Shown: positions 10,440 through 41,706, counted from the first letter of the stretch. The stretch: DNA of 48,253 nt from Minisyncoccota bacterium (GCA_036517375.1 DATDWM010000021.1:1-48253), one strand, 5' to 3'. Translations and numbers: made by a program. The notes: generated by a model from the sequence alone, not told the origin.

Positions 10440-11615
10440 ATGAGGAACGCCAAAAGTTCTGAGCAAAGTCGAAGGGTAGTATTTGTTGGACTCTCAGGAG
10501 GAGTAGACTCTGCTGTTTCTGCCGCTCTGCTTTTAAAGCAGGGATTTGAAGTCGTGGGAGTTTTTATTAAAACTTGGCATCCAGACTTCTTAGAATGCAA
10601 CGAAGAGGAGGAGCGTCGGGATGCCATGCGCGTAGCAGCGTATTTGGACATTCCATTTCTAACTTTTGATTTGGAAGATGTTTATAAAAAGGAAGTTGCA
10701 GACTATATGATTCTCCAATATAAAGCCGGCCGGACGCCGAACCCAGATGTAATGTGCAACAAATATGTAAAGTTTGGCGCTTTTTTGAAGCGAGCTTTAG
10801 CTATGGGTGCAGACTTTGTGGCTACGGGGCATTATGCGGGAATTCCTCCCCTCCTTGATAAGGAGGGGTTCCGGGGTGGTAATTCAAAAAAGAACCACCT
10901 CGCCCAAATAAATTTGGGCACTCCTCCTCCGAAAGGAGGAGAGGGTTTTAAGTTGTATAAAAGTATTGACTCCAGTAAAGATCAAAGTTATTTCCTCTGG
11001 ACACTCAAGCAGGAACAACTTTCAAAAATACTTTTCCCCGTGGGAGGTTTACTAAAGTCAGATGTCCGCAAACTCGGAAAGAAATTTAATTTACCTGTAG
11101 CAGAAAAGAAAGATAGCCAAGGCATATGTTTCTTGGGTGCGGTGGACCTAAAGGAGTTTTTGAAACACTATATTAAAGAAAAGAAAGGAAAAGTACTGAA
11201 TATAAAAGGTGAAGTTATAGGACATCACAATGGTGTGGTATTTTCCACTTTAGGTGAGAGGCATGGATTTACGATAACAAAAAAAGGTCCCAACGATGGA
11301 CCGTATTACATAGTTGGAAAGGATGTAAAGAAAAATATTTTAACAGTTTCGCAGAAGGTAAATTTTCCTAGGCAAGACCTAGGGAAGAATGAATACAAGT
11401 TAGAAAACACAAATTGGATTTCGGAAATTCCTAATGAAACCAAAGATTACACTGCGCAAATTCGTTATCATGGAGAACTTTTGGACTGCAAAATTAAAAT
11501 CATTGGCAAGACAAAAGTAGAAATAATTTTTGAAAAACCGGTACTTGTGGCTTCCGGCCAGTCGGTAGTACTCTACGATGGGGATGTTTGCCTAGGTGGG
11601 GGAGTTATTATATAA
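10440..11615 (+). CDS. mnmA: tRNA 2-thiouridine(34) synthase MnmA, carrying an extra ~28-aa insert
   Basis: PP-loop GLSGGVDSAV, plus ATGHY and KDQSYFLW motifs. Start moved to ATG 10440, because the ORF-track start at 10356 overlaps the exonuclease gene. Confidence 0.88.
   Translation: MRNAKSSEQSRRVVFVGLSGGVDSAVSAALLLKQGFEVVGVFIKTWHPDFLECNEEEERRDAMRVAAYLDIPFLTFDLEDVYKKEVADYMILQYKAGRTPNPDVMCNKYVKFGAFLKRALAMGADFVATGHYAGIPPLLDKEGFRGGNSKKNHLAQINLGTPPPKGGEGFKLYKSIDSSKDQSYFLWTLKQEQLSKILFPVGGLLKSDVRKLGKKFNLPVAEKKDSQGICFLGAVDLKEFLKHYIKEKKGKVLNIKGEVIGHHNGVVFSTLGERHGFTITKKGPNDGPYYIVGKDVKKNILTVSQKVNFPRQDLGKNEYKLENTNWISEIPNETKDYTAQIRYHGELLDCKIKIIGKTKVEIIFEKPVLVASGQSVVLYDGDVCLGGGVII
10848..10941. repeat. 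Block of four consecutive hairpins, in frame inside mnmA
   Basis: Four hairpins: CCCCTCCTT-GAT-AAGGAGGGG (10848-10868); GGTGGT...ACCACC (10875-10899); GCCCAAA-TAAA-TTTGGGC (10902-10919); CTCCTCC-GAAA-GGAGGAG (10924-10941). Confidence 0.75.
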
Positions 11616-41003: not shown

Positions 41004-41024
41004 TACAGAGGAGTTTCCTCCGTA
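41004..41024. repeat. Left terminal hairpin TACAGAGGAGTTTCCTCCGTA
   Basis: Self-complementary. It is the reverse complement of 41686-41706 except at one position. Confidence 0.8.
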
Positions 41025-41033
41025 TGGTTACCT

Positions 41034-41666
41034 TTACTCGTTAAAGTTTAACCATTCAAAAAGCTCGTTCTGGTGATCAGTGGGATTCTTGAAATATAGA
41101 GGAAATTCTATGGGATTCGTGACTTCAAACTTGTTGTCTAAGTATTCTTTCAAACTCGAGTATTGATATTGAAATATATACTCTAGAAGCTTAGTAACAT
41201 TTCTATCTGCTTTATCTCTCCAATTTTTATCTATTATTTTGGCTGGGTTCAGGTGTATGTAGGAATAAAGATATTTTAAATAATTGTCTTTTTCTAGGTG
41301 AGTTGATTTAAATACGCCCTCATATAATTTACCAGTTCTTTTATATTTTTTATTAAAGTACATTGAGTATCCAGTCAACAACTTACGCATGTATGTAGAT
41401 ATACCACTTTCAACTTTTTCACGGACAAGAATGTGAAAATGGTTTGACATCAAACAGTATGCCCCAATATCAATTATTGTTTCTCCACGATCAAAATTTT
41501 CATCAATATGTCTTAGTTCAATACTCTTCTTGCTGTTGCAGATGTACATTAAAAACAAAAAATGTCGATAGTCTTTTTTATCTAAAAATATAATTCTTTT
41601 TTCTGTGCCACGGTTATACAAATGATAGTATTCGCCGGTTGCAAAAGATTGTTTTCGTAAAGCCAT
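41034..41666 (-). CDS. HUH Y1 tyrosine transposase (REP-associated RayT / IS200-like)
   Basis: YHLYNRG N-terminus, HUH motif NHFHILV, and the catalytic Tyr region YSYIHLNPAK. Confidence 0.8.
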   Translation of the reverse strand: MALRKQSFATGEYYHLYNRGTEKRIIFLDKKDYRHFLFLMYICNSKKSIELRHIDENFDRGETIIDIGAYCLMSNHFHILVREKVESGISTYMRKLLTGYSMYFNKKYKRTGKLYEGVFKSTHLEKDNYLKYLYSYIHLNPAKIIDKNWRDKADRNVTKLLEYIFQYQYSSLKEYLDNKFEVTNPIEFPLYFKNPTDHQNELFEWLNFNE

Positions 41667-41685
41667 ATAGCTAGTATATCATAGT

Positions 41686-41706
41686 TACGGAGGAAACTCC
41701 TCCGTA
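41686..41706. repeat. Right terminal hairpin TACGGAGGAAACTCCTCCGTA
   Basis: Perfect 9-bp stem (TACGGAGGA/TCCTCCGTA) with an AAC loop. Confidence 0.8.

Follow-up and report, generated by a model that had tools for sequence, protein, structure and literature searches.

A palindromic block, apparently read through, in the mnmA gene of a Minisyncoccota bacterium as a probable relic of a dispersed repeat of paired predicted triplex motifs

Rickettsia palindromic elements (RPE), said to have been described by Ogata et al. in 2000 and 2002, reportedly insert in frame into protein-coding genes, and repetitive extragenic palindromic (REP) sequences and REPINs reportedly form, together with REP-associated tyrosine transposases (RAYTs), the systems that Bertels and Rainey are said to have treated in 2011 as REPtrons. 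A third group of repeats, BoxC/PIT/TMECO, has to our knowledge been known for decades without an origin, a partner protein or a function, and has been reported as strictly intergenic. Here, these systems are compared with a block of about 100 nt (positions 10845-10945) located within the gene mnmA of a Minisyncoccota bacterium (GCA_036517375.1, DATDWM010000021.1:1-48253); this whole stretch of 48,253 nt is referred to as the window. In the TMECO layout, a 9-nt C-rich arm is followed, after a loop of 3-6 nt, by a G-rich arm and then, after a loop of 3 nt, by another G-rich strand (Holder et al. 2015, PMC4666352). Formation of a purine-motif intrastrand triplex by TMECO was shown in vitro, and in Escherichia coli the motifs, which often occur as inverted pairs, are always intergenic (PMC4666352, in which the TMECO/PIT/BoxC literature, including Hoyne 2000, is cited). 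RPE-like in-frame repeats and TMECO-type triplex repeats are kinds already known. Our literature searches did not bring up any account of palindromic or triplex repeats standing in frame in genes of Patescibacteria, nor of a nuclease of the DUF559 family as their partner.

We consider it likely, with a probability of about 0.7, that the mnmA block belongs to a dispersed DNA repeat composed of two inverted triplex motifs, that it is a copy lacking a gene and read through in a loop of MnmA, and that it is probably a relic of a family linked to a DUF559 gene. The window is contig C21 of a genome of 32 contigs (636 kb, 41% G+C). The open reading frame (ORF) of mnmA is open from 10356, its likely start being the ATG at 10440, past the stop of the upstream gene, and its product carries all three MnmA domains. 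The host gene and the parts of the block are as follows.

10440..11615, plus strand: mnmA (tRNA 2-thiouridylase), the host gene, from the ORF list; Pfam domains PF03054, PF20259 and PF20258; solved MnmA structures matched with E = 1e-83
10845..10944, plus strand: whole inserted repeat unit, with the core at 10848-10941 as delimited by the covariance model; in-frame translation IPPLLDKEGFRGGNSKKNHLAQINLGTPPPKGGEG
10848-10868, plus strand: hairpin A, CCCCTCCTT/GAT/AAGGAGGGG, 9 bp
10873-10901, plus strand: hairpin B, GGGGTGGT...ACCACCTC, 8 bp including G-U pairs, from predicted folds and the family consensus structure
10902-10919, plus strand: hairpin C, GCCCAAAT/AA/ATTTGGGC, 7-8 bp
10921-10941, plus strand: hairpin D, CTCCTCC(TCC)/GAAA/(GGA)GGAGGAG, 7-10 bp
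10848..10881, plus strand: predicted triplex motif 1, in TMECO layout (PMC4666352), mirror match 9/9
10882..10893, plus strand: A-rich spacer ATTCAAAAAAGA, the loop of hairpin B, encoding NSKKN
10894..10944, minus strand: predicted triplex motif 2, mirror match 8/8 by hand

The four adjacent hairpins that the original prediction had placed at 10848-10941 are present with the sequence given there, and the ORF list and the Pfam domains confirm that the block is in frame within mnmA, with the translation GIPPLLDKEGFRGGNSKKNHLAQINLGTPPPKGGEG. Folded with RNA parameters, the block has a minimum free energy of -58.6 kcal/mol, compared with -37.7 +/- 3.8 for 200 dinucleotide shuffles (z = -5.5), and 0/200 shuffles fold as well as the block does; with DNA parameters the z-score is -5.7. 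The GAAA tetraloop pointed out in one of the hairpins is real in the mnmA copy but is not conserved in the family to which this copy belongs, the consensus loop being AAAAA, ACAA or AGAA.

The arms of these hairpins fall into two motifs related by a mirror rule. In motif 1, the pyrimidine arm CCCCTCCTT (10848-10856) is followed by the loop GAT, the purine arm AAGGAGGGG (10860-10868), the linker TTCC and the mirror third strand GGGGTGGTA (10873-10881), the first two arms being those of hairpin A; all nine positions of the third strand agree with the reversed purine arm under G*G, A*A and T*A. Motif 2 is read on the other strand, with the pyrimidine arm CCTCTCCTCC (complement of 10935-10944), the purine arm GGAGGAGGAG (complement of 10921-10930), hairpin C as a long second loop and the third strand GAGGTGGT (complement of 10894-10901), which agrees with the purine arm at eight of eight positions. 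On the plus strand motif 2 shows as the right arm of hairpin B, hairpin C and hairpin D. Hairpin B itself is the two third strands (GGGGTGGT and ACCACCTC) pairing when the strand folds alone.

The mirror match is perfect (9/9) in 28 of 30 copies of the family, and its partners vary together: GAGGAGGGG is found with GGGGTGGTG in six copies, AAGGAGGAG with GAGGTGGTA and a matching pyrimidine arm, and GAAGAGG with GGTGAT. In motif 2, the alternative of ACCACCTC or ACCACCCC co-varies with that of CTCC..GGAG or CCCC..GGGG in hairpin D. Across phyla, at 116 loci, the base preceding AGGAGGGG predicts the base following GGGGTGGT (A with A or T 58:8, G with G 52:7; Fisher p = 8e-19, the sequences being non-independent). 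Since a mirror relation is impossible by Watson-Crick pairing, the constraint would be on DNA triplex potential, and the mirror covariation points to such a predicted potential; the strand is accordingly predicted, from its sequence, to be capable of forming an intrastrand triplex.

This construction invites comparison with TMECO/PIT/BoxC, with which it shares the order of arms, loops and mirror strand, the 9-nt arms, the inverted pairs on opposite strands and the sequence rule of class II purine-motif triplexes; both are also dispersed and highly conserved, with no transposase nearby. However, the sequence is AAGGAGGGG/GGGGTGGT and not GGGNGAGGG, the TMECO consensus being a C-rich stem followed by GGGNGAGGG N3 GGGNGAGGG, so that with arms AAGGAGGGG and GGGGTGGTA the block represents the same class and another sequence family. 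Further differences are that an entire hairpin serves as the second loop of the second motif, that the hosts are Patescibacteria, and that DUF559 adjoins some copies, which is not reported in PMC4666352. The location differs as well: whereas TMECO are reported as always intergenic, the window copy and at least 30 others are not, lying in frame within essential genes. In other phyla, most copies that share the core stand between genes. The core, CCCCTCCT..AGGAGGGG..GGGGTGGT..ACCACC..CCCCTCCT..AGGAGGGG, constitutes an inverted pair in many phyla (L144-L259), and the paired architecture was found in Sphingomonadales, Terriglobia, Armatimonadota, Bacteroidota, Clostridia and others, with several core copies per genome in a Terriglobia metagenome-assembled genome (MAG), an Armatimonadota MAG and Novosphingobium.

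Other copies, for which the original prediction had proposed searching, do exist, and the repeat recurs both in other genes and in other genomes. A search with MnmA also matched the insert peptide within other genes of relatives, and the sites retrieved gave a canonical unit of about 88-90 nt, CCCCTCCTTnnnAAGGAGGGGGTTGGGGGTGGTAATTCAAAAAATCACCACCTCGCCCTAAAGGGCACTCCTCCTCAAAAAGGAGGAG, translated as (T)PLLxKEGVGGGNSKNHHLALKGTPPQKGGE. The covariance model of the family, R1, was built from 17 copies, and copies scoring above 60 bits were regarded as strong. The window copy (91.6 bits, E = 4.7e-17) is the sole full copy in its own genome; about 32 strong copies are spread over 10 of the 25 species searched within the genus, and 16 further families belonging to the order yielded none. 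The in-frame host genes are tsaD, topA, ligA, rnr, uvrB (three copies in one genome), metG, lepA, tgt, ftsK and mnmA, and about 10 further copies are in intergenic DNA. At least 30 copies lie within long ORFs, throughout in one orientation and in one frame. The consensus offers exactly one stop-free frame per strand, and selection therefore explains the frame, though not the orientation bias. When 185,579 species genomes were scanned for the pattern, the exact four-hairpin form was encountered in MAGs labelled Nomurabacteria, Paceibacterota, Minisyncoccia and Saccharibacteria; long ORFs contain about half of these copies.

The genome of the window also holds incomplete members of the family. 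Most modules are present in frame, in changed order, in infB (C10:3975-4055) and recG (C26:2675-2770), and shorter in-frame pieces are found in lepA (C14:13257-13295), where the decayed remnant reads YPPHLVKEGVGGGQ, in rnr (C17:63237-63275), at the site that is occupied by full copies in G024 and G009, and in atpD (C18:5415-5470). A further copy is located on the opposite strand at C3:388-425. The ends of the unit are imperfect terminal inverted repeats, CCCCTCCTT ... AAGGAGGAG (8/9), a consequence of the likeness of hairpins A and D. The A-rich spacer is conserved in about 30 copies and therefore belongs to the element rather than to the host sequence, for which reason two separate insertions around four host codons (SKKN) were rejected as an explanation.

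Sequences of mnmA were collected from 40 related genomes and aligned. The stretch from ATGHYA to KDQSYF comprises 46 residues in the window mnmA and 14 in four insert-free relatives (L018, L022, L025 and L026), a net gain of 32 codons (96 nt) over the empty orthologs. The original prediction had given 44 residues for the segment between ATGHY and D..KDQSYFL, and about 16 for that of E. coli MnmA. Against solved MnmA chains the alignment falls into two pieces, with query residues 125-159 opposite just 8 residues, and in an AlphaFold model (14-row alignment, mean predicted local distance difference test score, pLDDT, 66.8) the insert, residues 124-157, is modelled as coil and stays under a pLDDT of 50. 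The insert may thus be a disordered surface loop of MnmA.

The position of the insert is not private to this repeat. At the mnmA site past ATGHYA, congeneric species (L002-L020) carry no fewer than ten long palindromes that are unrelated to one another and have stems of 12-25 bp, all of them in frame and stop-free. A second hotspot in mnmA is situated between ILxVSQ and NTNWIS (L003, L011-L015, L022), where the full four-hairpin element is present in G022 and G006, a remnant in G018 and different inserts in other species. A comparable picture emerged for the lepA loop past MQPVRMEY, which among 41 genomes (L079-L121) is empty (18 residues) in about 20 species and carries a full copy in G007 and G016; unrelated palindromes pile up here as well, and other palindromes are found in species of other families of the order. 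Empty hotspot sites consist of A/T-rich Lys/Asn codons. The hotspots may result from selection for tolerant loops, from an A/T-rich target preference or from attraction to resident non-B DNA.

The resemblance to RPE that was originally suggested holds in several respects: the block is palindromic and in frame, it occupies a variable loop of MnmA, and both other copies and empty orthologs exist. As RPE reportedly do, repeats of about 100 nt here occupy in-frame positions in the housekeeping genes of an organism with a reduced genome, apparently adding surface segments to the proteins without breaking the genes; also as reported for RPE, no mobilising enzyme is known, and no consistent target site duplication (TSD) was found here. 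The host lineages, however, are unrelated, and the likeness is put forward as an analogy; moreover, the unit described here is a pair of predicted triplex motifs with a candidate partner gene, and unrelated families share its insertion sites.

The candidate partner emerged from the neighbourhood of the copies. A small gene in G022 lies between two full copies that are identical, and in G016 one full copy abuts its ortholog; the product belongs to DUF559 (PF04480, E = 6.5e-31), with a Vsr-like PD-(D/E)XK nuclease fold. Element modules are directly beside all five closest DUF559 homologs (at least 68% identical; G022, G016, G021, G001 and G009); those of G021 and G009 are half-units in inverted orientation, directed at the DUF559 gene. 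DUF559 paralogs that are less closely related lie between variant modules of their own, built on the same plan, and further in-frame inserts, such as those in mnmA of G008 and in lepA of G005, match flank families of other DUF559 genes. A strict motif finder returned 2.1 motifs/kb in DUF559 flanks, compared with 0.008/kb in the genome of the window and 0.026/kb in other loci of the relatives. Among the 116 loci from other genomes, tblastn and hidden Markov model searches placed a DUF559 gene in four, within 175 nt of the element in three; the latter adjacency (3/116) is an enrichment, yet covers few copies. Homolog searches found no DUF559 gene in the genome of the window, where one marginal match (C7:18891) was dismissed as noise.

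Gene-carrying and gene-less forms can be compared directly at the metG-tatD spacer. In the genome of the window (G000; C6:14839-14892) two end modules are fused there with no gene (TACCCCCACCCAACCCTCCACCTAAGGTAGGGGGAGGCCAGGAGGGGGTA), whereas in G011 the same two ends have a 333-nt DUF559 gene between them, the two alleles differing by the segment between two CCTCC repeats. The same end modules surround DUF559 genes in G020 and G001, the metG-tatD position being confirmed for G011 only. The allele pair implies that units with the gene give rise to derivatives without it, or that the change runs the other way. Units with the gene have the right arm of B first, then C, D and the gene, and lastly A and the left arm of B; the infB and recG copies mentioned above have this order minus the gene. 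In the multiplied four-hairpin form the junction is the opposite one, A and the left arm of B being joined through the spacer to the right arm of B, C and D.

The layout around DUF559 genes recalls REP/RAYT systems, in which a small enzyme gene reportedly lies between inverted copies of a hairpin scattered over the genome, and true RAYT/REP pairs coexist with the repeat in these genomes. The enzyme here, however, is a PD-(D/E)XK-type DUF559 nuclease rather than a HUH Y1 transposase, the hairpins are pyrimidine first with a mirror third strand, and the copies are intragenic, not extragenic. The family also has two attributes of a miniature inverted-repeat transposable element (MITE), namely terminal inverted repeats and, in G022, G016, G021, G001 and G009, gene-carrying relatives with the same ends, although the gene carried is for a nuclease and not for a known transposase.

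Several observations weigh against our interpretation. Most copies are far from any DUF559 gene, and G006, G007 and G024 have several copies and no close DUF559 gene; the nuclease could be a passenger settling beside repeats. Across copies, no consistent flanking direct repeat of the TSD type was found, the boundaries being blurred by divergence. Mean identity between copies is about the same within a genome (0.75) as between genomes (0.73), which speaks neither for nor against recent amplification, and the structure model is of moderate confidence only.

The original prediction also ventured a link between the block and the hairpins flanking a Y1 transposase gene elsewhere in the window:

41004-41706, minus strand (gene): Y1 gene with flanking hairpins TACAGAGGAGTTTCCTCCGTA and TACGGAGGAAACTCCTCCGTA

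The ORF at 41034-41666, on the minus strand, encodes a RAYT-like Y1_Tnp protein (PF01797) and is flanked by TACGGAGGAnnnTCCTCCGTA; an enzyme of this type might have moved the repeat as a REP/REPIN-type element. Related genomes hold 0-12 Y1 paralogs each, GTAG stands immediately 5' of hairpin B in many copies, and all 16 inspected Y1 loci are flanked by their own purine-first hairpin in the classic REP/RAYT layout. Furthermore, hairpins of the Y1 type do sit in frame. Three more copies of the window REP hairpin (C18:29809, C18:52703 and C19:2946) are all within long ORFs, REP doublets of RAYT type occur in lepA of G006, G012 and G003, and the mnmA insert of G007 (L013), at the same site as that of the window, is a doublet of the hairpin flanking a Y1 gene of G007 (L076). 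However, hairpins of type A, B, C or D flank none of the 16 Y1 genes, which include all those of the element-rich G021, G022, G016 and G009. The arm polarity is opposite as well, the window Y1 hairpins being purine first (GGAGGA-loop-TCCTCC) and hairpins A and D pyrimidine first, and reverse complementing does not interconvert the two. Nor does copy number track Y1: G003 and G008, with 12 and 8 Y1 genes, have no copy, whereas G016, with one, has five. With DUF559 as the neighbour of the family, the proposed link fails for the mnmA block, although Y1-cognate hairpins can be found in frame even at this mnmA site, and mobilisation by Y1 appears to us quite improbable. As a separate observation, the small genomes of G003, G014, G007 and G008 (0.5-0.7 Mb) contain 8-12 RAYT-like Y1 paralogs, each with a private flanking hairpin.

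A conventional MITE that has terminal inverted repeats and is mobilised in trans by a DDE transposase, or a repeat spread without a dedicated enzyme by recombination or template switching at non-B DNA, would account for the imperfect inverted repeats at the ends and for the several unrelated palindrome families that pile up at the same sites; in E. coli, TMECO sites are linked to local instability and have no mobility gene nearby (PMC4666352). We nevertheless hold such an origin to be improbable, for it leaves the strong and specific DUF559 adjacency unexplained, no transposase was seen beside any copy, and the net gain is 96 nt at the first mnmA site and 90 nt at the second, where no consistent TSD was found. 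The structured RNA element in the mRNA that had been offered as an alternative, for instance a translational pause site or a stability element, fits the very stable predicted RNA fold and the Shine-Dalgarno-like AAGGAGG in the arms. Among known RNA families, the only match was one to RF02953 (DUF1874 RNA; window 10857-10935, hairpins B and C), which at 26.8 bits is below the gathering score of 42, no Rfam family reaching threshold; the RF02953 motif may itself be a repeat of a similar GC-rich hairpin type. Against a role in mnmA expression, the unit recurs between genes as well as inside more than 10 genes that are unrelated to each other, most relatives lack it in mnmA, and it obeys a mirror-repeat constraint that suits a DNA purine-motif triplex and is not explained by RNA pairing, which makes this alternative very improbable. 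It is also hard to credit that the insert is a lineage-specific functional loop of MnmA under protein-level selection, with incidental palindromes. In favour of this are the frame, which has stayed open, and the repeated occurrence of the peptide motif PLLxKEGxGGG, but in unrelated proteins the motif recurs only because the same DNA does; relatives have unrelated palindromic inserts or none at the same site, and no structure is predicted for the insert by the model.

We therefore return to the interpretation of the block as a gene-less copy of a dispersed triplex-motif repeat, for which the following course may be envisaged. The unit consists of two inverted motifs, and in each of them a loop joins the pyrimidine arm to the purine arm, from which a linker leads to the G/T mirror strand. 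One copy would have entered the turn of a beta-hairpin loop in the MnmA catalytic domain and would have been retained because this strand has only one frame without stops, whose product is a hydrophilic peptide rich in Gly, Pro and Lys; the gene would be read straight through, yielding an MnmA with 32 additional, probably disordered, residues. The family would have multiplied in one Paceibacterota genus (MAGs labelled Candidatus Nomurabacteria) and, given tiny genomes with little intergenic space, would have survived mainly in tolerant loops of housekeeping proteins. The repeat would have been mobile in the past. The DUF559 nuclease would be the likeliest enzyme to recognise the folded ends and to spread or maintain the repeat, although, judging from adjacency, we place the chance that it mobilises or maintains the family somewhat short of even. 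Since DUF559 has been lost from the genome of the window and the other copies there are fragmentary or rearranged, the mnmA copy would most likely be an immobile relic.

The construction known from BoxC/PIT/TMECO is found here inside at least ten essential genes of ultra-small bacteria, where it is apparently translated, and the gene-carrying relatives point to a testable partner, the DUF559 nuclease. The phenomenon of 'selfish DNA inside proteins' known from Rickettsia is hereby extended to the candidate phyla radiation. The insert sites mark loops of conserved enzymes that are naturally tolerant of insertions, and odd Gly/Pro-rich loops in these proteins should be annotated with caution, as repeat DNA and not as lineage-specific domains. 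More tentatively, and with the odds in our estimate clearly against it, DUF559 and paired triplex-forming repeats may make up a second, HUH-independent system of an enzyme plus a folded DNA repeat, spread across phyla and comparable to REP/RAYT. Such a system would explain BoxC/PIT/TMECO, and it would involve new elements being drawn to sites of resident non-B DNA, which would account for the accumulation of unrelated families at identical codons of mnmA, lepA and rnr. In the gene-dense Patescibacteria, its repeats would survive in frame within loops of essential proteins.

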